The position numbers were made by a program, and so were the translations under genes. Positions 3,697 to 42,484 of a stretch of 56,021 nucleotides of DNA are shown here, one piece after another. Below the pieces are notes generated by a model. It was given only the letters and a program-made list of their open reading frames with translations. It searched no databases and was not told the origin of the DNA. How positions within the stretch are numbered: the first letter of the stretch is position 1; the number at the start of each line of letters is the position of its first letter. Source of the DNA: a virus (Duplodnaviria; Caudoviricetes); the IMG/VR virus record IMGVR_UViG_3300017766_005490, positions 1 through 56,021 of that record; one strand, 5' to 3'.

Positions 3697-4449
3697 TTAA
3701 ACAAGGTCAGGGTTGCCGTTTGCAAACGCATTGAATTTGTTGCTTCCGACATAAACCAAATCAACACGCACACCTGCATCGCCAGTACCAGGGCTTGCAG
3801 CGGATCTGAAAGCTCCCAAAACACCAGGTGTTGTATCCTGGTTTAAGAACTGAATAACTTGGGATGCGTTTTGAGCAATGGTGAAACCAGCATTGGTTGT
3901 TCCATTAATGATGGTAAAAGTGTCACCAACGGTTGCAGAGGAAGGCAATGTGAAAGCTAGAGGACCAGAGGCACTATTAGCTACATAGCCATTACCTGCA
4001 ACAAGAGTTGTTGCACCAGTTACAGCGGTATAAGGCATTGCTGTTGCAGAAGCTGAAATTTCAATAGAAGTATCAGAACCGCTTGGAGTTAACGTAATGC
4101 CAGCACCAGCTGTTAAGTTAACGGCAAGAGCCAAAGAACCAGCGCCTGAAGTTGCTGTCAAACCAGAACCAACATCGGTTGTTAAATCGGCAAACACTGG
4201 ATCAGCGCCTGTAGAACCTAGAAAAAGCTGACCATCCGCACCAACAGAAGCCACATTAACGGCTGATGTTCCGTTACCCAAAACAACACCATGTGCGGTT
4301 AAGCTAGAAGCTCCTGTACCACCGTGATCAACACCAACAGTTGCTACAGATGTCACTTGACTTGTGCCATTACCAACAAGCAAATTGCCTGCTGTAATGC
4401 TTGTAAGACCGCCTAAAATAGGGGAATTAATTGCGTTATTTAAAGCCAT
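3697..4449 (-). CDS. Tail fibre protein
   Basis: G/T/A-rich with HGGTGA and LLVGNGT repeats; AAGGA RBS upstream. Confidence 0.7.
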   Translation of the reverse strand: MALNNAINSPILGGLTSITAGNLLVGNGTSQVTSVATVGVDHGGTGASSLTAHGVVLGNGTSAVNVASVGADGQLFLGSTGADPVFADLTTDVGSGLTATSGAGSLALAVNLTAGAGITLTPSGSDTSIEISASATAMPYTAVTGATTLVAGNGYVANSASGPLAFTLPSSATVGDTFTIINGTTNAGFTIAQNASQVIQFLNQDTTPGVLGAFRSAASPGTGDAGVRVDLVYVGSNKFNAFANGNPDLV

Positions 4450-10815: not shown

Positions 10816-11762
10816 TACGCAGCAACTCCAGTATAATATTGTGGCAATCCATAAAAGCCAGCTTGGTTTAATGCAGGGATTTGAATTCTATTTCCTGAAG
10901 CATCTATGCTTGCTTGAAACCCCATGCCATTCCAAATATTTTGGTTTTGGTCAGCACCTTGAACATAATATTGAGACAACAATCTTCTAACAGCATTAGC
11001 TGGCGTTACTGGATTTGTTGTGGGCAATGCAACAGTTCCTCGAACGTCTCCTGACGTATTCCCAGGCACATTAGTTGAAGCAACCGTTATGTTAGGATTT
11101 TCAATTGAAACAACTGTTGGAGCTAATGCATCAACTATGTCATAAGCTCCTAAATAAGAAATTTTATTCCAACCAAAAGACACAGCAGCGCCTTTATCAT
11201 TTAAAACAAAAGGCAAACCAAAAACATCTTGAGTTTGAACGGCAATTTTAGTTCCACCTGCAGTAGCTCCGTTTAAATAAACTTGAGTAATAGTATAAAA
11301 AGCTTTACTCATGTTATAAGGACTTGCAGCTTGAGTTCTAATGCTTATAGATTCCTGCATTTGAACGCCGTACCAATCTGTTCCAAATACAGTTAAATTT
11401 GTATCGGCTGCAAAATCAGCTGTAGAAACAGTTACAGAAAGAGCACGCGGCCAATCTAATTGTATGTAATAATTGCCATTTTGATCTTGCAAACGCGTGC
11501 AAGAACTATTAGCTACTGAATTGTTTAATGTAAGAGCACCAGGACCTGCATCAACATCTTGTTCACCACAAACGCCACCTGAAACTGATGTATAAGGCAC
11601 AATGTTGTACATGCAATTTGGAGAATACAGCATTGTAATGCCATAACGATCATAGCAAGAGCTGCTAAAAACGTTTCCGTTTGGATCAATGGACAAATTC
11701 TCAAAAATGGGGCCTGAACGCACCCCATCTTGAACTTGAGTTCCATAAGGAATATTTAACAT
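10815..11762 (-). CDS. Putative capsid decoration/structural protein
   Basis: Follows the MCP gene; PRALSVT, VFGTDWYG.QM.E, KAFY.IT, DVFGLP and GDVRGT motifs; GGAG RBS. Confidence 0.6.
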   Translation of the reverse strand: MLNIPYGTQVQDGVRSGPIFENLSIDPNGNVFSSSCYDRYGITMLYSPNCMYNIVPYTSVSGGVCGEQDVDAGPGALTLNNSVANSSCTRLQDQNGNYYIQLDWPRALSVTVSTADFAADTNLTVFGTDWYGVQMQESISIRTQAASPYNMSKAFYTITQVYLNGATAGGTKIAVQTQDVFGLPFVLNDKGAAVSFGWNKISYLGAYDIVDALAPTVVSIENPNITVASTNVPGNTSGDVRGTVALPTTNPVTPANAVRRLLSQYYVQGADQNQNIWNGMGFQASIDASGNRIQIPALNQAGFYGLPQYYTGVAA

Positions 11763-11775
11763 AATGTGTTACTCC

Positions 11776-12675
11776 TTATAGACCCATTGAGCCAAAGCAT
11801 GCACGCCAAGACGTGTACCCAAACGAATATCTTTCAATGCCCGAACAAACAATGTTGTAAGTGCTTGGATCGGTCATGAAATCAATTTCTAAAGGTTCGC
11901 GTAAATAATGCTTAAATCCTTGGTGATAGTCCGTAATAATAAACCAAGCTTTGCTGTTGGTTAAAAACGTGTTTTTAGAAATTTTCTTAAAGACACCTTC
12001 TCTTTTTAGCGCATTAATATCATTGTTAGCTGTACCTGGCCTGTAGTCTGACTCTAATACGCGAACAGCGTTATATTGGTTATATGGGCTAATTAATAAA
12101 GATTTTGGCTGAACTTTAATGTTAATACCGGCGTTGTTTTTCCATCCATCCATAATAATTTTGGCATCTTCCAAAGCTTTTTCAGAAAACTGAACACCTT
12201 GGTTAAATGTATTGGCCTGAACGCCAGTTTGAATAGGATGTTGCGTCGATAACAATGGCAAACCGTCAGAACCCGTTGAGCCTGCATTAGTTGCGTTGTT
12301 AAAAATATTCATGGCATTGATGTTTTTAACAGTCATCAAAGAAGCACGCATTGCTTCAGCTTGTCTTGGAAACTCACCTTTAAACTGGTTGTCTTTTACT
12401 GTGGCTCTAGTTATTGCAAACTGTATACCATAATATTGGTGAGTATAGGCAGTTTGGTATACTTGCCCCATACTTCCAGAAGCTATAGGACCTCCATCCT
12501 GTTTTAGCTGAGCTAATCCAAGCGTGCGCATTTCCATATCATACTCGACCGCTTTATCAGAATGATAAGTCGAATAAACATCTTTATACAATTCTGGCCA
12601 AGTATTGTAGTCACCAAATACTGTTTTTAAATACGGCAACAGTAAACCGTTAATATCGGACCTAGTAATAGTCAT
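11776..12675 (-). CDS. Major capsid protein (HK97 fold, Mu gpT-like family)
   Basis: 299 aa with ITR...LLP.L, SDKAVE, DGLPLLSTQHP, RPGTANNDIN, AWFI.TD and ERYSFG..WR..FGS motifs. Confidence 0.88.
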   Translation of the reverse strand: MTITRSDINGLLLPYLKTVFGDYNTWPELYKDVYSTYHSDKAVEYDMEMRTLGLAQLKQDGGPIASGSMGQVYQTAYTHQYYGIQFAITRATVKDNQFKGEFPRQAEAMRASLMTVKNINAMNIFNNATNAGSTGSDGLPLLSTQHPIQTGVQANTFNQGVQFSEKALEDAKIIMDGWKNNAGINIKVQPKSLLISPYNQYNAVRVLESDYRPGTANNDINALKREGVFKKISKNTFLTNSKAWFIITDYHQGFKHYLREPLEIDFMTDPSTYNIVCSGIERYSFGYTSWRACFGSMGL

Positions 12676-12719
12676 GATTTATCTACCTTATTTACGTTAA
12701 AATTTTTATAAAATTGTTT

Positions 12720-13397
12720 TTATGGAGCAGGAGGGGGAGGAGCTGCATTGCCAACAGGCGCAGTTCTATAAAAATGATTACGTATAATTACCCAAGCATT
12801 GTTCCATGTAAGACCAGGAACATTTCCTGGAGCGGGCGCTAAATTGGTAACAAGCAAAGGTTGACTGATGGTAGAAATACCAGCGGAGCTAACATCAACA
12901 CCCATTTTGGACATACCTGTTTGGGTATTTCCTAAAACTTGGGTTCCGTTAGCTTGGTAAATAACTGGAACTTGAATTCCAATAGAAGCTTGAGTAAAAG
13001 TTGATCCATTAACCGCTTGAACATCAAAAACAGCATTGGGATCAGATATGAAAAATCCAATAGCTGGCAATCCTTGTTTTGTAACCGTGCCACTTGGCCA
13101 ATAAGGACGACCTGGAGACGCAAAATCTACACTAGTTGTGTTCCCACTTTGATACGAACATCCTGCAAAAACACCAATAGCAGGCTTAATTTGGGTTCCA
13201 GGCGTATACGGGCCTGTAATCGTATCAAAATAATTGATTAAATAACCGTTTGTATCAATTGTAACCAAATCGCCTGAAAAAATATTATTTGCATAACCTG
13301 AAGCAATTTCTAAAGTTTGTAACTGACCTGTCCACGGGGCGCCTGTAATCGAATTTTGGACCTGCATACCCCACGGAGCGTTGACACCATATGCCAT
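12720..13397 (-). CDS. Capsid cement/decoration protein (start MAYGVNAP)
   Basis: AAGGAG RBS before ATG 13397; IASGY..NIF.GD.V, GVF.GC.Y and DP..VF.VQ motifs; lies directly upstream of the MCP gene. Confidence 0.65.
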   Translation of the reverse strand: MAYGVNAPWGMQVQNSITGAPWTGQLQTLEIASGYANNIFSGDLVTIDTNGYLINYFDTITGPYTPGTQIKPAIGVFAGCSYQSGNTTSVDFASPGRPYWPSGTVTKQGLPAIGFFISDPNAVFDVQAVNGSTFTQASIGIQVPVIYQANGTQVLGNTQTGMSKMGVDVSSAGISTISQPLLVTNLAPAPGNVPGLTWNNAWVIIRNHFYRTAPVGNAAPPPPAP

Positions 13398-13443
13398 GGC
13401 GATCTCCTTTATAAAAATAAATTTTTGGAAAATATGGGTTCGC

Positions 13444-13548
13444 AAACATTCGTCGCGCTGCCTGAAAAGCTTTCCGTGTTTCAGGGAGGTAAGATTAAAA
13501 AAAAGGCGCAGCTCAAGGCATACGATAACGCACTCTTACCTAATGCTT
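13444..13548 (-). ncRNA. Candidate structured 5' leader RNA of the capsid operon
   Basis: Stems AAGCAUU/AAUGUUU, AGGUAAGA/UCUUACCU, GUGCG/CGUAU and CCUGAAA/UUUCAGG; begins at the predicted TSS. Confidence 0.5.
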
Positions 13549-13553
13549 AAGTA

Positions 13554-13582
13554 ATTGTACAAAAAAAAAGTAATGTAATCAA
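13554..13582 (-). promoter_or_regulatory. Sigma70-like promoter for the capsid operon
   Basis: TTGATT-17bp-TACAAT on the minus strand. Confidence 0.55.
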
Positions 13583-13630
13583 CTAGATTTTTATTTTCCA
13601 ATAAAAAGAATTTGGTTTTGTAATTCTTTT

Positions 13631-13900
13631 TCAAAATTTTTCATCTGAAGATGGTTCAGACATTAATTTAGACATTTTCCAAATTCTACTTGGAACTACT
13701 TCAGACGCTTTTGCGTTTTTGCATCCATCCATAATAATTTTGGCATCTTCCAAAGCTTTTTCAGAAAACTGAACACCTTGGTTAAATGTATTGGCCTGAA
13801 CGCCAGTTTGAATAGGATGTTGCGTCGACAATAATGGCAAACCGTCAGAACCCGTTGAGCCTGGAACCGTTGCATTAAAATTAATGTTGTTAGCAGTCAT
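13631..13900 (-). CDS. Free-standing partial duplicate of the major capsid protein (89 aa)
   Basis: 13722-13863 matches MCP 12143-12284 at 140/142 nt. Confidence 0.6.
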   Translation of the reverse strand: MTANNINFNATVPGSTGSDGLPLLSTQHPIQTGVQANTFNQGVQFSEKALEDAKIIMDGCKNAKASEVVPSRIWKMSKLMSEPSSDEKF

Positions 13901-13976
13901 TAAAAAGTTTGCTTTTATGCGTAATTATTAATTAATTATACAAAAAAATTTTAAATATTAAAATAAATTTTTAGGC

Positions 13977-14092
13977 AAAAAAAAACCCTTTGTTTACGAT
14001 GAGAAAATAAACAAAGGGTTTTTTCATATTCAATTATACTGATGGAGAATCAATACAAAAAACATTATAGCATTAATAAATCTGGTGTCCAA
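13977..14092 (-). ncRNA. Candidate sRNA unit (promoter, about 80-nt RNA, intrinsic terminator)
   Basis: TTGGAC-17bp-TATAAT with extended TG (14092-14064); 17-bp-arm hairpin 13980-14024 followed by a U-run. Confidence 0.45.
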
Positions 14093-14577: not shown

Positions 14578-15717
14578 TTAGTAATCCTCTGCTACAAATT
14601 TGACGTTATAAGGGTTTTCTAAATTTTTTGAATCCCTTAAATTTTGAGCAAACATTGAAATAATTTGATCGCGACTTTTATGTGGCATTTGCCTTTCAAT
14701 CTCATTAATCATTTGCCGTTGTTCTGCGGTTAACGTAATGCGATTTCCTCCTCCTGTTGCCGCAGCATATTGTTCAGCCATAGAGCCTGCTCTTGGAACT
14801 GGTGCTACATTTGAACGATTTTGATACGTTGATTGGGGAGTATTTCTTAACTCAAAAGGCAAAGCATGATGATTTAGCTGCGCTTCTTTAAAAGGATTAG
14901 ATTTTTTGTTAATGTTGTATAATTTTTCTAAATCACTTTTAGCTTGATTTAAAATTTCAATAGGGTCAACATTTGAAATCTCTCCACTTAATGTCAAGGC
15001 ATCTTCATAATAAGCAACTTGGTCTAGAAATTTTTGACTTAACCTTGGATTTGAAAACAAAAAAGCATTGTCTTGTTGCCAATCGACAATAGGATCGTCT
15101 AAATTTTCAAAATCAAAATCTTCTGAAGAATTTGGCAACGGTTGGTCAATATAATCAGAATTTTGCTGTTGAGAATAAACGGGAGCTGTTGCTTTTTGAT
15201 ATTTGTGATATTCATTAGTCATTTTTTCAGCTTTTAACGTAGCAAGCTGATCTGATAACTCAATTTCCGCATCAATATCGCCATCTAACTTAGCTTGGCG
15301 CAAAGAATTTTTAATTGAAGCTTCGCGTGTAGCTGAATTAGCGTCGTAGTAAGTGTTGACTAAGTCATCTTTTTTAGCTAAAAGATTTTCTTTTTCCGCC
15401 AACAAACGTTTTGTTTCCGCCAGCTCATTAGCCATTTGAAGTTCACGTTCTTTAGCAATTTTGGCATTATACAAAGCTTGTTTAACGCGTTTTTCGCTTG
15501 GACTTTTTTTTTGGGGCCGTTCCGTTTCCGTAAAGCCTTCTGGAACTTCTTTTGTTAAAAGGTCTTTAGGCCGATTAGCAAGTTTTTCTAAAACGCTTAG
15601 CTCCCCGTTACTATCATCATTTACAGATTCAGAAACTTCTATAGATTCTTCATCGGTAGGCGTTTCCCAAGAAGCAAGGGAATGATCTTTTAAAACATTG
15701 TCAGTATCATCAAACAT
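14578..15717 (-). CDS. Capsid scaffolding protein
   Basis: Acidic N-terminus, coiled coil, A...GD motif and C-terminal ITLTAEQR motif; located between portal and MCP. Confidence 0.65.
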   Translation of the reverse strand: MFDDTDNVLKDHSLASWETPTDEESIEVSESVNDDSNGELSVLEKLANRPKDLLTKEVPEGFTETERPQKKSPSEKRVKQALYNAKIAKERELQMANELAETKRLLAEKENLLAKKDDLVNTYYDANSATREASIKNSLRQAKLDGDIDAEIELSDQLATLKAEKMTNEYHKYQKATAPVYSQQQNSDYIDQPLPNSSEDFDFENLDDPIVDWQQDNAFLFSNPRLSQKFLDQVAYYEDALTLSGEISNVDPIEILNQAKSDLEKLYNINKKSNPFKEAQLNHHALPFELRNTPQSTYQNRSNVAPVPRAGSMAEQYAAATGGGNRITLTAEQRQMINEIERQMPHKSRDQIISMFAQNLRDSKNLENPYNVKFVAEDY

Positions 15718-16180
15718 TTTTCTTCACCCTTGATTCATAAAGCATTGATTGCTCAAATTCATTAAAAGCTTCTATTGCTTGATCAGTTGTAAAATTTTCT
15801 TTAAACAATCCAACAGCTTTTAAAATATTATTATCAATATTTGGGATAGTTCCGTTTGTGGCAGAATCGTTTAGATAAAAATATTTAATGCCATCATGCG
15901 TTTTTTTATCTTCCCGCGATGAACGTGTAATATGTACCCAATCTCCCACATTGACACGGGGACCGTTGGGAAAAATTTCTTTACTTGAAAAAGCTTCATC
16001 ACCAATTGCTAAAATTTTTGAAACCATGTAAAAATCTGCAATTTCTTCACGGTCAGAATCTGTAAGGAAAATACCGCCTTTAGTTTTTTCTGGAGGAAAA
16101 TAAGGAACAGCAATCATACGAAACCCTGTAGGTTCAATATAAATACCTAAATATTTTTTAGTTAAATTTTCATATCCCAT
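15710..16180 (-). CDS. GroES-like co-chaperonin
   Basis: P.GFR, EKTKGGIFL, ILAIGDEAF and VGDWV motifs. Confidence 0.8.
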   Translation of the reverse strand: MGYENLTKKYLGIYIEPTGFRMIAVPYFPPEKTKGGIFLTDSDREEIADFYMVSKILAIGDEAFSSKEIFPNGPRVNVGDWVHITRSSREDKKTHDGIKYFYLNDSATNGTIPNIDNNILKAVGLFKENFTTDQAIEAFNEFEQSMLYESRVKKNV

Positions 16181-17587: not shown

Positions 17588-20140
17588 TCAAACATTAGGC
17601 ATTACCCCTTGTTTTTGTATTAAAGTTTCAAGCGCGTTTTTCTCTTTTAAAGCCGAATCCCTTTCCTTGGCCGCAAAATCCAACTCCATTTTTTTATTAC
17701 TCAACTCGCCCTTAAGTGCTTCAACTTCCATCTTGAGGTTAAGTTCTTTTTCCTTTTGGGCAGATTCCATTTCAAGTTTAAGCTTTTGAAATTCAAGCTT
17801 CATAACTTCAAGCTCAAGTTCTTTTTCTGTTTTTTCAGCTTCAAAAGACAATTTTTGCTGAGCACTTTCGGCTTTTAAACGCGCATCTTCAAGCATGGCT
17901 GTACCAGGGTCAACGGGCTGAGGCGTTGGGTTTTGCTCTTGTTGACGTTTTTGCTCTTCCAGCACAATTTGAGCTGCTACCATAGCCACATGATTTTGCT
18001 CATCGGGCGTTAACTCTTCTATGTTTTCAGGCAATTGAATTTGCATTTTAGCTTGCATTTCAAGAAGATAATTCATTGATTCATGCTCTTTAATGTGAGC
18101 TTGGATAGCGGCTAAAATTTGTTGGTCTTGATTTGGATCAGCTAAAATCTGTTGATGAACGGTTATATGTGCAGAATGATCTTGGAACACAAAAGCTTTT
18201 AAAGGTTTGCCTAGAAACGAATTAGCGTTTTCTGTAACAGGATCAGTTGGAATAGTTTGTTCTTCCTGAGGAGGTTCAGGTAATAAAATTTTATCTATTT
18301 CTTCTTGAGAAACGCCTAAGTTTTTATAAAACATCAAAAGCGCATTTCTTAAATTGTGCAGTTGCGGGCTTTCCATTGCTCGATTAAGCAAAATTTCTGA
18401 CAACATAAGTTTATATGTTGAATTCTGCATGGATGGATCAGATGATGGGAAAATTTGGTATTTTGGGCTAAAGTCTTCCCTCATGACCACATGTTCGCCA
18501 CCTGGCACTAAAAACGGGTAAACTTGATCATCCGTCATCCATTCATAAAATCGTTCTTTAAACAATTTTAATTCTTGAGCAAATGAAAAATGAAAACCTT
18601 GCAGAATTAAGTTTGGTACCCGTTGTAATGATTCAAGAATAGCTAGAACTGAACCTGTAGGGGCGCGTGGGGCCATTTCAGAAATGGTATTATTAATGAT
18701 TCCAACTGGTGCTTTGATTGACTCTTCCAAAGAATTCTTAAGGTCCAAGACCATTGGCGAAACATCACGGTATGGCAAAGAACTTAACACTTGATCAATG
18801 GGCACACCACCTGTTGATAATGGCACATACTGCCCAGGTTGGGGGGTAATTGTATTATTGTCCACACGCGTGCCAGCAGCGTACACACCTGCGGGGAATG
18901 AAGCATACGTACTACTTTTTATAATTAAACGAGTTAAAGCAGTGGCAGCTTGCGCAGATGAACCGCCATAATGCATGATTCCATAACCTTCACCGTCTAA
19001 ACTTGGGAAGAAAGAATAATTAGCAAAAAATTCACGTGCTTTTTTATTTGGATCTTCTTTCTTCCAATTTCTTTCAACTCTGACGACATTTCCTGTGGCA
19101 GAATCTAAAGTAATTATATAAGGCAATGACCTTTGTTCACGATTTAATCGATCACTTTTGATTAAAAATAAGCAATGACATTCAAAAAGAATGTAACCAC
19201 CGTTATAAGTTCCGTCACTATCTTCAACGGGATCAATTCCGCTGACATGGTCTAAAATCTCTTGGATTTGATTATTGTCATTATCAATTTTTAAACTGTC
19301 TTGAAACTCAACTGTCCAATTTTTTGAATAAAATCCCATATCAACTTGCATGTTAAAATCTCTTTCAAGAATTCTTAAAACATGCGTTTTCCTAGGCGAA
19401 GCGTGATGGGTTGAATAATCGCGATTTAAAATGAAATCTTCTGGCCGAATGAAACGAGACGTTGGAGTATCCCGTATGGGATCGATATAAACTTTTCTGT
19501 AGGCACTTCCTGTTAAATTTGCCCAAAAAAGCGTACGAATCATATCTTTTCGAAAATCTGGTATTTCTTCATTCAAATAAAAATCATAAAAATACCCTTG
19601 CCTCAATGCGCATTCATCTAATCGCTCAGTAGATTGACCATATACAACGGATTTAGCAATATCTTGAGAAGGCAACAATACCGCGACAGCTGTTGCAATG
19701 GAATGGCAATTTGTCTCAAACAAAGTTGTTGAATAGACATTTACAGTTGCAGGATCGGGTGATTCATTTTTTCCTAAACTAATACCAAGCAATTTAATGA
19801 TATCAGCAATAGCTTTTCTGTAAGGTTCTTGCGTTTTATCATCTTTTTTAATTAAATCGCATAATATATTGCCAATGTTACGAATTTCATTGGGGTCTAA
19901 TTGGTCAATAATATTACCGTAAAATTCCCCTGAATTCTTTTCCGCCACAGGCAATTGGTTTGGTTCAAAAATAGCTGATCCGTCTTCAAAATGCTTAAGA
20001 ACCATTCCATTAGGCAATTCTTGCTGATTAAATCCATCAACAGGCGCTTTATATTGCCCAACAGAATTAAATAAACTTTTCTTATACTCATTTATTGGAT
20101 TAATTGGCTCTATATCAATAGTGTTACCAGTATTTAACAT
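17588..20140 (-). CDS. Portal protein (start uncertain: 20140, 20155 or 20194)
   Basis: About 850 aa directly after TerL; GSAYRKVY.DP, FI.PED, G.GYG..H, LPY, SDP, DPV.EN and AF..QDH.AHI..H motifs; coiled-coil tail. Confidence 0.88.
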   Translation of the reverse strand: MLNTGNTIDIEPINPINEYKKSLFNSVGQYKAPVDGFNQQELPNGMVLKHFEDGSAIFEPNQLPVAEKNSGEFYGNIIDQLDPNEIRNIGNILCDLIKKDDKTQEPYRKAIADIIKLLGISLGKNESPDPATVNVYSTTLFETNCHSIATAVAVLLPSQDIAKSVVYGQSTERLDECALRQGYFYDFYLNEEIPDFRKDMIRTLFWANLTGSAYRKVYIDPIRDTPTSRFIRPEDFILNRDYSTHHASPRKTHVLRILERDFNMQVDMGFYSKNWTVEFQDSLKIDNDNNQIQEILDHVSGIDPVEDSDGTYNGGYILFECHCLFLIKSDRLNREQRSLPYIITLDSATGNVVRVERNWKKEDPNKKAREFFANYSFFPSLDGEGYGIMHYGGSSAQAATALTRLIIKSSTYASFPAGVYAAGTRVDNNTITPQPGQYVPLSTGGVPIDQVLSSLPYRDVSPMVLDLKNSLEESIKAPVGIINNTISEMAPRAPTGSVLAILESLQRVPNLILQGFHFSFAQELKLFKERFYEWMTDDQVYPFLVPGGEHVVMREDFSPKYQIFPSSDPSMQNSTYKLMLSEILLNRAMESPQLHNLRNALLMFYKNLGVSQEEIDKILLPEPPQEEQTIPTDPVTENANSFLGKPLKAFVFQDHSAHITVHQQILADPNQDQQILAAIQAHIKEHESMNYLLEMQAKMQIQLPENIEELTPDEQNHVAMVAAQIVLEEQKRQQEQNPTPQPVDPGTAMLEDARLKAESAQQKLSFEAEKTEKELELEVMKLEFQKLKLEMESAQKEKELNLKMEVEALKGELSNKKMELDFAAKERDSALKEKNALETLIQKQGVMPNV

Positions 20141-21752
20141 CTTCTTTGTATCCATTATTGGTAAAAATAGGGTCAAAACGATTAATGAGCTCACCAGTTT
20201 GCTTAAGACGAATCAAAGCCTGGCTCATTGTATCAATAAGATCATTAGCGTCTGTATTTGGAAATAACATTGCGCAATCAAGAAATAATTGTGCGCTTTC
20301 GGTTAAGTAGTAATTGCCAGGGCTTTCGGTTTGAAGCCACACTAAGCCATTTTCTATCAAATGTGACACATGGCGGCAGCGGGCAACTTTGTCACCGTAT
20401 TTGCCTGGATCAAATTTCATAACAGGCAACCCTGCTTCGAACAGGTCATTAAATAAAGTATATCCGCTTACTTTAGCTTCAATTAAAATGATATCAGGTT
20501 TATTTTTATAGCCACGTGGGTAAGGATCATCAATATCCGTATCATCGTAATTTTGGGCCAATCGCCATGCCATTTTACGAAGTTCTGGGTATTCTAACCG
20601 CCCCCGAAACACAGACAAAAGCATTAAATGTCGCTGCCCTCGGTCTCCTTCAAAAACGCCCCAGGTGGTTGCGGCTGAATAGCAAGACATTTTAGAAGTG
20701 GTTAAAGCGGTATCCCACGATTGGATAATGTACTTAAATTCAGGTAAGTAATTTTCCCGCCATAGATTAAACCAAGATTTCTGTAGAATGCCGCCATCTT
20801 TAGGTGAAGGGCGCATCTGAAGTTGCCCTGCAATGCGGTAACTATCATGTTTAAACTCATCTTTAAGCGCGGCTAATTCTTTAGGTCCAATACCTTCAGG
20901 CCACAACAATTCTCCTTCTTTTGTTCTGGGATCCATCCAAGGCGTTTCATCATCTTTTAAAGGAATCGTAATACAGCGCGTGTCTTCTTCAAATTCCATG
21001 GGGAGGGACAAATGCACCCAATCCGTATTTTTCATAAGTACATGACCGCTTAAATCGCTAATATGAGTTCTTTGTTGAGTGATTAAACGGCGCCCTGTTT
21101 TAAAATCGCAAAAGCGCGTAGGCATCACCGAATCGTACCATTCATTAGTAGATTCACGGATAATTGAGCTTTCAATGTCCCGAATATTGTTCGGATCATC
21201 ACAGATCTGAAAGTCGCCGCCACTTCCTGTGTTAGCACCATCAACGGATGAGCAAATACGATAACCGTTTTTGTTGTTGTCAAATTTTAATTTATTATTG
21301 ACATCGGCCATTAATTGAAAACGGTTGCCCCACCGTTCTTGATACCAATTGGATTGAATCAAACGCCGTGTAGCTACAGAATCGCGCGTAGACAAGCTTT
21401 GTGAGTATGATGTGTACAAAAATCGTAAATTAGGTTTATTTGCCCACACCCATGAGGGGTACAAAACTGAGCAGATAGACGATTTCCCCACGCGAGGCGG
21501 GCAATTGATGATAAGATTACGGATTTCTAAATTATATAAGGCTTCCAAGTGTTCAGCCATAGCTTGAACATGCCAGCCATCTTTAAAAGGCCTGCCGTCT
21601 ATCCAAATCCAAGCAGCTTTGATAAATTCATAAAAGCTGTTTTCCAAACGCGCACATTCTTCTAGAATTTCATCGTCTTTGTTTGATGAAAACCAATTTT
21701 TGGAAGTTTCGCACAAATTGACCGTGCGCTTTAAAAGATTTTTTGCGTACAT
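20124..21752 (-). CDS. terL: Terminase large subunit
   Basis: LIINCPPRVGKS Walker A, ICDDP Walker B, QQRTH..DLSG, QSWDTA, IEAK.SG and DLIDTMSQAL nuclease motifs. Confidence 0.95.
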   Translation of the reverse strand: MYAKNLLKRTVNLCETSKNWFSSNKDDEILEECARLENSFYEFIKAAWIWIDGRPFKDGWHVQAMAEHLEALYNLEIRNLIINCPPRVGKSSICSVLYPSWVWANKPNLRFLYTSYSQSLSTRDSVATRRLIQSNWYQERWGNRFQLMADVNNKLKFDNNKNGYRICSSVDGANTGSGGDFQICDDPNNIRDIESSIIRESTNEWYDSVMPTRFCDFKTGRRLITQQRTHISDLSGHVLMKNTDWVHLSLPMEFEEDTRCITIPLKDDETPWMDPRTKEGELLWPEGIGPKELAALKDEFKHDSYRIAGQLQMRPSPKDGGILQKSWFNLWRENYLPEFKYIIQSWDTALTTSKMSCYSAATTWGVFEGDRGQRHLMLLSVFRGRLEYPELRKMAWRLAQNYDDTDIDDPYPRGYKNKPDIILIEAKVSGYTLFNDLFEAGLPVMKFDPGKYGDKVARCRHVSHLIENGLVWLQTESPGNYYLTESAQLFLDCAMLFPNTDANDLIDTMSQALIRLKQTGELINRFDPIFTNNGYKEDVKYW

Positions 21753-37471: not shown

Positions 37472-37870
37472 ATGCATAAATCAGGAAAAATCACTATGGA
37501 AAGTTTTAAAATTTGTTTAAAGTTTGCAGAAAATGTCTGTGAAACAGGGTACCCTAAAGATCATGAAAAATTTGTTAATGATTTGAAAAAAGTTTTAAAA
37601 AATTCTTGGCCTGGGTCTCGTTTTTTAACGCGTTCAGGAATTGTTCAACTTACGGGCAATGAAACTGTAGATCAATTAAATTTCAAACTTGACCAAATTA
37701 TTGGCAATATAAACACGTTTAAACAATTTGAAAAAGAAGTTTTGTTTCTAGGAATTTCTTTGGAAAAATTTTTGTATTCCCCGCCAATTGATTTCAAATC
37801 AGGAGGAATCGAATTGATTTCAAATCAGGAGGAATCGAACCCCCGTCCTCAGCCCCAAAGACTAAGATAA
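37472..37870 (+). CDS. Hypothetical protein (3' end overlaps the tRNA-like gene in antisense)
   Basis: ORF with AGGA RBS before the second Met (MESFK). Confidence 0.4.
   Translation: MHKSGKITMESFKICLKFAENVCETGYPKDHEKFVNDLKKVLKNSWPGSRFLTRSGIVQLTGNETVDQLNFKLDQIIGNINTFKQFEKEVLFLGISLEKFLYSPPIDFKSGGIELISNQEESNPRPQPQRLR
37786..37837. repeat. 26-bp tandem duplication of the tRNA 3' end
   Basis: AATTGATTTCAAATCAGGAGGAATCG twice. Confidence 0.9.
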
Positions 37871-37890
37871 TGCCACTATACTATAATTTG
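37820..37890 (-). tRNA. tRNA-Gln(TTG)-like, atypical
   Basis: Cloverleaf CAAATTA/TGATTTG; D loop TAGTGG; TTAGT-CTTTGGG-GCTGA; GGGGG-TTCGATT-CCTCC; many G-U pairs; no encoded CCA. Confidence 0.65.
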
Positions 37891-38038: not shown

Positions 38039-38117
38039 TGGGACGCTTGGGGGAGTCGAACCCCCTTCTGACGGCTTTTTTTAGAAGCCCTGTCTTGCCA
38101 AAATAAACGAAAGCGTC
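38039..38117 (-). tRNA. tRNA-like gene with AAA anticodon (Phe-like), atypical
   Basis: GACGCTT/AAGCGTC acceptor; GTTT/AGAC D stem; GGCTT-CTAAAAA-AAGCC; GGGGG-TTCGACT-CCCCC; followed directly by CCA. Confidence 0.6.
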
Positions 38118-40707: not shown

Positions 40708-41550
40708 TTAATCCGCCTCCTTAACACGGTGTGCTTCAGTATCAACAGTTTCAGCTTCTACATCGATAATTTCGGAATCAACGGACAAATCTATCAAATC
40801 GTCAGCTAACGTGTCTGTTGAGTTGGTTTTTGGTTGTTTTTGCGTAATTTCGCCTGTTTCTGTGATAACAAGCGATTCATCATCTGGGTCAGGCAGTTCT
40901 GGCAAAGAAGGACTTTTAGGCAATGTCTTATAAAGTTTTCGAATGGCTTTGCCAAGCGCCATGCTGTCAAAACCATTTGTCCAAAAAATTTTAGTTTTAG
41001 ATGGTGATTTTTCTTGAGCTTCTAAAGCTTCCTCAAGTGACAAAATTGCAAATTTGTAAGTTCCATCTTTGAAAGTTAAATCTGCATAATACAACGCTGC
41101 CCCCCCTTTTTTTGAAAAAGTTGGTATGTGGTGCAAAAATTCGTCTTTTCCATATTGCACTTGAAATTTATGTTCTTCAATTTCGTTTTGATAAACAATT
41201 CGCGTATTGATTTTAGCAATTGAAGGTTGACGATATAAAAGCTCAACCATGCCTTGGTAGCCAATCTGAAAATTAAGTTCTCCCTTGTAGGGAACAACAT
41301 AAGCATAGCCAAAAACGCTTGAAATCTTTAAACCATATTGAGCTGATTGGATAAGGCAATTTAAAATTGATTGAGGCGAACACTCTAAAATTCTTTTATT
41401 AATTCGGCACTCATTAAATAAAAATGAAATTACCGTTTCTGGGGTGATAAAATTTTTATAGGGTTCTAATTTTTCCAACCATTCATGTCTTTTTGAACCG
41501 TTTTGGTCTAAATATTTTTTGTTTAGACTTATGAGATCAGCATTCATCAT
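40708..41550 (-). CDS. recT: RecT-family single-strand annealing protein
   Basis: CSPQSI...L.Q.AQ.GL, G.AY.VPY, FQIGYQG..EL and FD.MA..KAIR motifs. Confidence 0.9.
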   Translation of the reverse strand: MMNADLISLNKKYLDQNGSKRHEWLEKLEPYKNFITPETVISFLFNECRINKRILECSPQSILNCLIQSAQYGLKISSVFGYAYVVPYKGELNFQIGYQGMVELLYRQPSIAKINTRIVYQNEIEEHKFQVQYGKDEFLHHIPTFSKKGGAALYYADLTFKDGTYKFAILSLEEALEAQEKSPSKTKIFWTNGFDSMALGKAIRKLYKTLPKSPSLPELPDPDDESLVITETGEITQKQPKTNSTDTLADDLIDLSVDSEIIDVEAETVDTEAHRVKEAD

Positions 41551-42484
41551 TGTTTCCTTTCGCTACTCTAAAAGTGCGGCTTTGAGTTGTTTTTATAAAA
41601 TTTTCATACAAATCTGGATGGTCAGATTTAAATTTTTTTGAGTCAAAAGTTTTTCTAGACGTATTTTTGTAAGTAATTAAAATTTGACCAATAGTATCAA
41701 TTAAAATTTCTTTTGACGAGATAAATTCAGCTAATATGGCTTTTTTTTCATCAACTAAAACGGATATTTCTTTCTCTTTTTCAATTAGGTTTAATAATTC
41801 CGTGTAGACACTCAAAATCTCAGGAGAAGCTATTGCAGATGAATTGCCGTCCACTTGCAGACGGCTATTGTAACGCAACGTCTCTTGAGCACTTAATGCG
41901 GCAGGTGGGGTTTTTTTAAGAACACAATTTTCCCAAAAGTTTTTAGCAATCTTTACAATGCTTTGCTCAAGCTTTTCATGACGGTTGTATCTGTAAATAT
42001 GTATTTCAGGGTGTGAAAAATGGGAAATACCCACAATAATATCAACGTAAGGAGCATTATAAATTAACGCGTAAAACGCGCATTGTAATTTATAGGCATC
42101 GGGGATTTCATCAGTTCCTGGAGTGCCCCATTCCTTAAAATAGTTATTTGAGCAGGTTGTTTTGACTTCAAGAATACCGCCATCCTCAATAAGGCCATCA
42201 ACACGGGCAACCATGTAATCATAAGAAGGGTGACGTTTAATAGGGGCATCTTTAACGTTTTTTCCAGTTCTTTGCGTGTATTTTCGGATTAGCCAAGGTT
42301 CAAGCTCAGAACCTATTTCTGCAGGTATATTTTCTTCTTCCTCCACATCTTCGTCAATTAGCGTAATTTTGTCCAAATAAATATCTCGAGGACCCTTATA
42401 TTTTGATTTACCACAAATGGGGCCAATGTCGCTGCCCCCAATCATGTTTTTTCGTTCTTTTTTTTCTTCAAACGTCAGTGCCAT
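41537..42484 (-). CDS. YqaJ-like viral recombinase exonuclease
   Basis: R...IGGSD...I.G.SKY, G..LEP, A.VDG, LEVKT, WG....EIP..Y..Q and FW motifs. Confidence 0.92.
   Translation of the reverse strand: MALTFEEKKERKNMIGGSDIGPICGKSKYKGPRDIYLDKITLIDEDVEEEENIPAEIGSELEPWLIRKYTQRTGKNVKDAPIKRHPSYDYMVARVDGLIEDGGILEVKTTCSNNYFKEWGTPGTDEIPDAYKLQCAFYALIYNAPYVDIIVGISHFSHPEIHIYRYNRHEKLEQSIVKIAKNFWENCVLKKTPPAALSAQETLRYNSRLQVDGNSSAIASPEILSVYTELLNLIEKEKEISVLVDEKKAILAEFISSKEILIDTIGQILITYKNTSRKTFDSKKFKSDHPDLYENFIKTTQSRTFRVAKGNNDEC

Follow-up and report, generated by a model that had tools for sequence, protein, structure and literature searches.

The 56,021-bp viral genome IMGVR_UViG_3300017766_005490 (Caudoviricetes), referred to here over its full length as the window, carries a second, partial copy of its own major capsid protein gene within a 378-bp insertion just upstream of the capsid operon (Table 1). 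The copy supplies 62 of the 89 codons of a small open reading frame (ORF), drawn from a capsid gene that encodes 299 residues. We consider this feature to be, probably, a recent and strain-specific by-product of recombination with the anatomy of a moron, and not a capsid decoy, an exclusion factor, or an antisense template as had been proposed from the sequence. The record is a complete genome with direct terminal repeats, and the sequencing runs that contain it carry a freshwater label.

A repeat search of the window identified an ungapped direct repeat of 186 nt (12136-12321 and 13715-13900) with 90 per cent identity and a spacing of 1579 nt. When the insertion was compared to the window with blastn, the match covered 149 nt at 98 per cent identity (E = 2.6e-75). 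The near-identical core of the copy differs from the capsid gene at two positions only (12250 T versus 13829 C, and 12253 C versus 13832 T), which on the minus strand read TTG TTA in the capsid gene and TTA TTG in the copy, or Leu-Leu in both. The original prediction had reported a match at 140 of 142 nt with both differences synonymous, and direct reading of the sequence bears this out. The ORF list likewise returned the 89-amino-acid ORF, its N-terminus, and its new tail exactly as they had been quoted. The start codon of the ORF is inherited, being that of capsid Met114.

We next considered whether the second copy is real. Misassembly had been named in advance as a result that would overturn the claim, and the comparison with contigs of sequencing runs covered 4 of the 22 runs listed as holding the sequence (X1, X2, X4, and X20). 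In the Logan contigs of X1 and X2, the 142-nt repeat is resolved as a unitig of its own, with roughly double the depth of its surroundings (57.4 versus 29-31 for neighboring unitigs in X1, and 65.7 versus 38-42 in X2). A 1497-nt contig (12255-13751) leaves the capsid copy, crosses the 225-amino-acid gene, and enters the fragment copy, while a further contig exits the fragment copy at 13834 and extends upstream of it. Because the unique parts all show the same single-copy depth, the order seen in the window is the only one that fits. The unitig from X1 has the fragment version of the variant bases and the one from X2 has the capsid version, so both variants are present in the reads. An assembly artifact or a chimera of two strains might still be suspected because the record is a metagenome assembly, because the repeat includes 107 nt of exact identity (longer than common k-mer sizes), and because unitigs do not assign the two variant bases to the two copies. 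However, an independent assembly of two runs gave the same graph, with the repeat at about double depth and single-copy flanks joined to it on both sides, and the same 89-amino-acid protein is on record from two contigs, which makes an artifact extremely unlikely. X1 and X2 are possibly the source samples of the window, and thus represent a second assembly but not necessarily a second sample.

The insertion is absent from a virus that is otherwise nearly the same. A 41-kb contig from run X4, which belongs to a different study, joins position 13589 directly to 13968 and omits the 378 nt; over 2723 aligned nt, it differs from the window at 29 other letters and 1 gap (about 99 per cent identity). 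The nearest relative in the viral contig collection (L003; capsid protein 94 per cent identical in amino acids, capsid gene 87.8 per cent in nucleotides) has about 300 nt at the place where the window has a gap of 670 nt between the terminator hairpin (13979-14025) and the 225-amino-acid gene. L003 retains the terminator and the promoter region, and everything between them is absent. In L004, with a capsid protein 54 per cent identical in amino acids, we found no repeat of its own capsid gene. The cultured phage CRP-901 keeps the gene order and has a syntenic gap of 22 nt with no insertion. More broadly, we searched 82 relatives' loci, each with its own capsid protein, and found the capsid fragment in none of them (0/82; 69 of these loci extend 1500 nt or more beyond the capsid gene on its upstream side). 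The fragment also had no match in scans of viral or metagenome contigs. The original prediction had called for a search for the same fragment in relatives and had listed its absence there as counting against a function; it is missing from the X4 contig, L003, L004, and CRP-901, and the functional options lose ground to that extent.

Read along the minus strand, the insertion consists of an AT-rich stretch, a T-run with an extended -10 motif, a leader of about 28 nt, the ORF, and an AT-only hairpin. The parts not derived from the capsid gene have a G+C content of 21 per cent, compared to 35 per cent for the window. The 125-nt tail had no match in the window, in the 82 relatives' loci, or in the scans of viral, metagenome, and genome contigs. 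Short probes from the tail and promoter flank gave the same result (a 28-nt probe found nothing in viral contigs, and a 26-nt probe found nothing in genome contigs), and the 587 pattern matches from the metagenome contig scan yielded no confirmed hit. A close search of the phage collection found no match to the tail or promoter flank. A distant search of the same collection returned a 44-nt AT-rich match to a Clostridium phage (E = 9e-3), which we took to be chance. No Rfam family was found for the insertion. At its ends (13590-13597 and 13960-13967), the insertion has a perfect 8-nt inverted repeat, TTTATTTT...AAAATAAA, beside 3 nt that could belong to either side of the joint. Across the window, 5e-5 of comparable position pairs show such a pairing of ends, and the frequency is 2.8e-4 when AT-rich DNA lies at both of them. 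As the repeat was found post hoc, in AT-rich DNA and with a 3-nt ambiguity in the boundary, we regard it as suggestive only.

The copy is unevenly diverged. We aligned the fragment, the capsid gene of the window, and the capsid gene of L003 by codon. In the 5' flank (13 codons, 39 nt), the fragment has 8 mismatches to the window and 6 to L003, with 10 between the window and L003. In the core (48 codons, 144 nt), the fragment has only 3 mismatches to the window versus 13 to L003, with 12 between the window and L003. The flank also has a 15-nt in-frame deletion. The step in divergence from flank to core is significant (Fisher's exact test, P = 2.3e-4), and remains so once the local rates of difference between the window and L003 are allowed for (3 core mismatches seen where 9.6 are expected, P = 0.014). 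Of 11 core sites where the capsid genes of the window and L003 differ, the copy agrees with the window at 10. The core thus follows the window's own capsid gene, while the flank behaves in the alignment like a third allele, with an age that would be similar to that of the window-L003 split. A gene-conversion patch or a mosaic donor would account for such a contrast between core and flank. The original prediction held that the core is being homogenized or selected. Both tests support the view that the core is kept more alike than the flank, but selection on synonymous sites is not needed to account for it, and after a recent conversion the two synonymous differences carry little weight.

The insertion is a patchwork in three parts: a copy of the operon promoter, an internal piece of the capsid gene of about 194 nt (from about codon 111 to codon 176, less the 15 nt of the in-frame deletion), and the AT-rich tail of 125 nt. 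We propose that the cassette, whole or in pieces, was gained from what was probably a co-infecting relative, through recombination of the short-homology or illegitimate type. Either later or at the same time, ectopic gene conversion would have replaced a core of 142-149 nt with the sequence of the resident capsid gene; alternatively, the donor may itself have been a mosaic. The window encodes a RecE-like exonuclease and a RecT-like annealing protein, a pair predicted to be the phage's own short-homology recombination system, and these proteins could catalyze the exchange. The related Red proteins of lambda are reported to recombine diverged sequences efficiently (PMC2327257). The ORF needs no separate explanation. 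Since its start codon is that of capsid Met114, any in-frame copy from that point opens an ORF, and this one runs on for 27 codons of new DNA until it meets a stop. If the insertion has any effect, the likeliest would be that of a second, tandem promoter whose transcripts pass the weak hairpin and enter the capsid operon. We also considered a tandem duplication followed by an internal deletion and rejected it: such a history requires the 125-nt tail to have stood upstream of the promoter beforehand, whereas both the X4 contig and L003 lack it there.

Several observations sit poorly with this explanation. The divergence of the flank is comparable to that between the window and L003, so that the cassette or the donor allele predates the split from the X4 strain and must have persisted somewhere. 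The extended -10 of the promoter copy is the consensus, and is better than that of the resident promoter. The reading frame has survived a 15-nt deletion and 8 substitutions in the flank without acquiring a stop codon, and no stop interrupts the 27 codons of the tail; each of these is weak, although they point in the same direction. The copied piece (residues 114-176) also holds both of the invariant columns (D137 and N155) in an alignment of 67 capsid sequences, and 3 of the 10 nearly invariant ones (N126, G138, and H146). Last, a recombination model does not explain a perfect 8-nt inverted repeat at the ends of the insertion.

Table 1. Features of the capsid region and the recombinase genes in the window, listed in order along the minus strand, with the recombinase genes last.
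Feature	Position	Strand	Remarks
GroES-like gene	15710-16180	minus	First of those listed in transcription order
Genes of 379 aa, then 167 aa		minus	Between the GroES-like gene and the terminator hairpin
Intrinsic terminator of upstream operon (predicted)	13979..14025	minus	Insertion begins about 12 nt after it
378-bp strain-specific insertion	13590..13967	minus	Between the strong terminator and the capsid-operon promoter; boundaries shift by up to 3 nt
Putative promoter copy	13922..13948	minus	T-run and extended -10 TGTATAAT, no -35 match; 85% identical over 27 nt to 13541-13567
Diverged 5' flank of copy, including start codon	13864..13908	minus	Outer limit near 13908 is our own reading
89-aa ORF (ATG start)	13631..13900	minus	Capsid residues 114-176 with a 5-residue deletion, then a 27-residue new tail
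Near-identical core of copy	13722..13863	minus	140/142 nt versus capsid gene 12143-12284
AT-rich 125 nt, no match found	13590..13714	minus	27 tail codons, stop codon, and weak hairpin 13605-13629
Resident capsid-operon promoter (putative)	13541..13567	minus	Extended -10 TGTACAAT; conserved in L003
First gene of capsid operon, 225 aa	12720..13397	minus	No assigned function; directly upstream of the capsid gene, the same in L003 and L004
Major capsid protein gene, 299 aa (predicted)	11776..12675	minus	12136-12321 is the parent copy of the repeat
RecT-like annealing protein	40708-41550	minus	phrog_148, E 8.3e-45
RecE-like exonuclease	41537-42484	minus	phrog_434, E 1.2e-65

The insertion lies between two regulatory signals of neighboring phage operons. 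The hairpin at 13980-14024 folds at -21 kcal/mol (z = -6.09), with none of 200 shuffled sequences folding as well. Its stem reads CCCTTTG/CAAAGGG in the window and CCCCTCTG/CAGGGGGG in L003 (at about 3990-4040). These paired changes keep the helix, and are good evidence that the predicted hairpin is a working terminator. On the other side of the insertion, a 14-nt promoter motif has two matches in the 56-kb window, 381 nt apart (13 of 100 shuffles also reach two). The promoter copy is closer to the L003 promoter allele (20/21 nt) than to the window's resident promoter. A consensus promoter scan did not flag the copy. RNA contigs from run X20 cover 11600-13522 in six pieces, with nothing further upstream, so that their limit falls a short way downstream of the resident promoter, which weakly hints at a genuine promoter in this motif. 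X20 shares variants with X4, whose contig has no insertion, and its silence over the fragment is therefore uninformative. The AT-only hairpin that follows the ORF (13605-13629) is unremarkable, with 55 of 200 shuffles folding equally well (z = -0.62).

The resident promoter and its 5' leader of about 150 nt (13398-13589 on the minus strand; 4062-4257 in L003) make up the part of the region that is best conserved when the window is compared with L003. The two are identical at 184 of 196 columns in this stretch, compared to 501/684 for the 225-amino-acid gene, 423/504 for the 167-amino-acid gene, and the 87.8 per cent given above for the capsid gene. The leader had no Rfam match and folds no better than shuffled sequences (z = 0.10). 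A probe for it found 0 matches in metagenome contigs, and only the L003 contig among viral contigs. This stretch may be a regulatory leader.

Whether the ORF is a gene was examined from several sides. The 18 nt next to its ATG contain no Shine-Dalgarno core; such a core precedes 34 of the 57 ORFs of at least 80 amino acids in the window, including both genes of the capsid operon. The 89-amino-acid ORF had no Pfam or PHROG match, and it does not amount to a full-length HK97 fold. Among proteins of 48-156 amino acids in a collection of 5.8 billion clusters, the protein matches only itself (1 candidate, from 2 contigs), and among 178 longer candidates in the clusters, the L003-type capsid cluster was the only one to match. 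For the exact protein, the ESM Atlas model has a predicted template modeling score (pTM) of 0.18 and a predicted local distance difference test score (pLDDT) of 0.41, values at which structural neighbors are meaningless. In the flank, the proportions of nonsynonymous and synonymous differences (pN/pS) are 0.161/0.375 for the copy versus 0.097/0.875 between the two full capsid genes, and the substitutions of the copy look relaxed, though the counts are small. An open tail of 27 codons is not unusual either, as 1253 of 20000 shuffles (6.3 per cent) stay open that long. Taken together, these results suggest that the ORF most likely makes no functional protein.

In one alternative explanation, the gain is regulatory: an extra, stronger tandem promoter would be the useful part and the capsid fragment a passenger. 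The promoter motif is found only at the capsid operon and in the insertion, which has TGTATAAT where the resident promoter has TGTACAAT. In addition, the poor hairpin after the ORF (z = -0.62) means that read-through into the operon is expected, and the X20 RNA contigs begin just downstream of the resident promoter, again a weak hint. We nonetheless think a regulatory gain unlikely, if worth keeping in mind, as the putative promoter copy has no -35 match and went unflagged in the consensus scan, and near relatives manage without it. A second explanation treats the insertion as a tiny mobile element, i.e. an ultra-small cassette bounded by inverted repeats, similar to the MPMEs of mycobacteriophages, that took up capsid DNA at an earlier site. 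The perfect 8-nt inverted repeat at the ends, a rare pairing, would suit such an element, as would the clean presence or absence of the insertion between near-identical genomes and a size close to that of the 439-bp MPME1 (PMC3029335). However, the insertion is single-copy and lacks any transposase-like ORF; neither its ends nor its tail were found again in the window, the 82 loci, or the scans of viral, metagenome, and genome contigs; and the inverted repeat came to light only post hoc, in DNA that is AT-rich. We consider a mobile element highly unlikely.

The remaining alternatives give the capsid fragment itself a function. Among abortive-infection systems, CapRel recognizes capsid protein, and Lit recognizes a peptide of the T4 capsid, Gol. 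A separately expressed piece of capsid could in principle meet a sensor of this kind; in those systems, in contrast, the capsid protein or peptide activates the defense. A working micro-protein would use its 47 capsid-identical residues as a defense decoy, or as an assembly poison against co-infecting relatives. The ORF is intact, lies behind a promoter-like site, and covers the most conserved motif of the family, and both core differences are synonymous. Several defense systems are triggered by capsid proteins, according to a review (PMC13728456). Within the open-literature passages searched for decoys, no phage capsid-fragment decoy is described, and the word was met only in its proteomics sense or applied to nucleotides. 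The decoy and dominant-negative options of the original prediction are left unsupported, given that the copy is absent from near relatives, that the protein has no stand-alone homolog, no Shine-Dalgarno core, and a pLDDT of 0.41 in the Atlas, and that constraint on the flank is relaxed. Moreover, a piece identical to the phage's own capsid protein would be equally likely to trigger the sensor or to poison the phage's own assembly. A working micro-protein is thus decidedly unlikely. In a more elaborate form, a translated micro-protein would display the conserved motif and soak up a capsid-sensing defense or hinder the assembly of relatives, with ongoing gene conversion keeping the mimic matched; this we judge very unlikely. 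Finally, a plus-strand RNA from the copy could end at the 13980-14024 hairpin and pair with capsid mRNA as an antisense regulator. With runs of A and T on its two sides, the hairpin could act as a terminator in either direction, and there is a weak promoter-like site on the plus strand at 13808-13835. But plus-strand promoter-like sites are at chance (12 found versus 11.8 expected in shuffles), an RNA starting after 13835 would include less than 30 nt of the identical core, no Rfam family was matched, and the hairpin is older than the insertion, being the conserved terminator of the upstream operon. The antisense template that had been suggested to end there has close to no chance of being correct.

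Short pieces of genes are found near their parents in other members of this phage group, at a low rate. Among 540 ORFs of at least 150 amino acids in the relatives' loci, 6 have an extra copy elsewhere in the locus (six loci of 82), and most of the copies are pieces of 21-43 amino acids. One of the six is another capsid gene, in L021. Some other extra capsid piece was found in 2 of the 82 loci, these being L021 and L064 (the latter a weak 37-amino-acid match). In L021, whose capsid protein is 36 per cent identical, an 85-nt copy of the 5' end of the capsid gene (about 90 per cent identical) is joined in frame to the C-terminal end of an 85-amino-acid ORF on the opposite strand, 3 kb upstream (803-1060 on the minus strand; 4040-4125). 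L021 is thus a second and independent case of a small ORF containing a piece of capsid. Other short partial copies near their parents include L012 3311-3385, L028 6618-6680, L051 6085-6213, and L041 4190-4503 (21-43 amino acids, 56-90 per cent identical). Capsid genes are not over-represented, and short fragments near the parent are a low-rate general feature of the group. Among the literature listed for partial duplication of capsid genes, we found nothing relevant.

The parent gene itself can be placed with some detail. Its 299-amino-acid product is, by sequence and profile matches, a predicted HK97-type major capsid protein resembling gpT of phage Mu. It matches PF25209 (E = 3.8e-7; 31.1 bits with a cut-off of 27) as well as PF10124 (Mu gpT) and phrog_371, and it is 30-35 per cent identical to annotated capsid proteins of cultured phages, e.g. 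Roseobacter phage CRP-901 and Pelagibacter phage HTVC023P. A HMMER search with the capsid protein identified 2,675 cluster representatives at E <=0.001, and the 67-sequence capsid profile matches the solved capsid proteins 9jod and 8rkc. The matches to these two PDB entries come in two pieces, covering capsid residues 1-149 and 161-218, and leave about 70 middle residues of the solved chains and about 80 C-terminal residues of the capsid protein unmatched. The order of domains or the insertions in this capsid protein may differ from those of gpT. Just upstream of the head genes is a GroES-like co-chaperonin, as in the cultured CRP-901. The large terminase gene is at 20124-21752. ARAGORN reported a 78-nt tRNA-Phe with the unusual anticodon AAA at 38040-38117 (minus strand). 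At its gathering threshold, Rfam found only the neighboring tRNA at 37820-37890, and the one at 38040-38117 may be either a false call or an odd tRNA.

Morons are autonomous units of promoter, gene, and terminator that lie between two genes of one phage and are absent from its relatives, a concept reportedly due to Hendrix and colleagues. The insertion resembles one in lying in the gap between a terminator and a promoter, in having its own promoter-like site and a small ORF, in being absent at this site in relatives, and in its lower G+C content. Unlike a moron, it carries a piece of the phage's own capsid gene and not a foreign gene (the rest of the ORF being without a homolog), it has no convincing terminator of its own, and its promoter is a copy of its neighbor's. 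On this comparison, the anatomy of the insertion would be closest to that of a moron, short of a terminator of its own and a foreign gene.

Parts of the picture are also seen elsewhere. Work on PeSL cassettes of T4-type phages describes insertions and deletions of small ORFs between close relatives at repeated promoter/stem-loop motifs, and proposes recombination between the motifs (Arbiol et al. 2010, PMC2839356). Here, too, an insertion or deletion lies between repeated promoter motifs beside a stem-loop. PeSLs are, however, many and dispersed in the hyperplastic regions of large myoviruses, whereas here the motif occurs twice within 381 nt in a structural module. With partial duplication or ectopic conversion, the insertion shares a short internal piece of a gene near its parent, a sharp step from diverged to near-identical sequence, and a RecE/RecT-type pair; it differs in that the frame is kept, a promoter copy stands in front, and the flanking DNA had no match in the searches. 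It also shares several features with the MPMEs (PMC3029335), including a size of about 0.4 kb, short terminal inverted repeats, a small ORF, and presence or absence between near-identical phages. But MPMEs, by the same account, recur in identical form at several sites and in several genomes, while the insertion is single-copy and its ORF is a capsid fragment.

The repeat has a consequence for the phage regardless of how it arose. As the original prediction had calculated, and the confirmed spacing of 1579 agrees, recombination between the 142-nt direct repeats can delete 1579 bp. The loss would take in the resident promoter and the 225-amino-acid gene, together with codons 1-130 of the capsid gene, and should be lethal. 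With a RecE/RecT-type system on board, the repeat is therefore a standing cost. On our reading, the insertion also offers a datable snapshot of the gain of a small ORF, with a patch bearing a gene-conversion tract in one strain and a sibling about 99 per cent identical without it. As an example of gene birth or junk birth, it would not surprise phage genomicists. If a product is made, on the other hand, its interest would be far greater, since a natural stand-alone capsid fragment held in step with the capsid gene would represent a novel type of counter-defense or exclusion factor.

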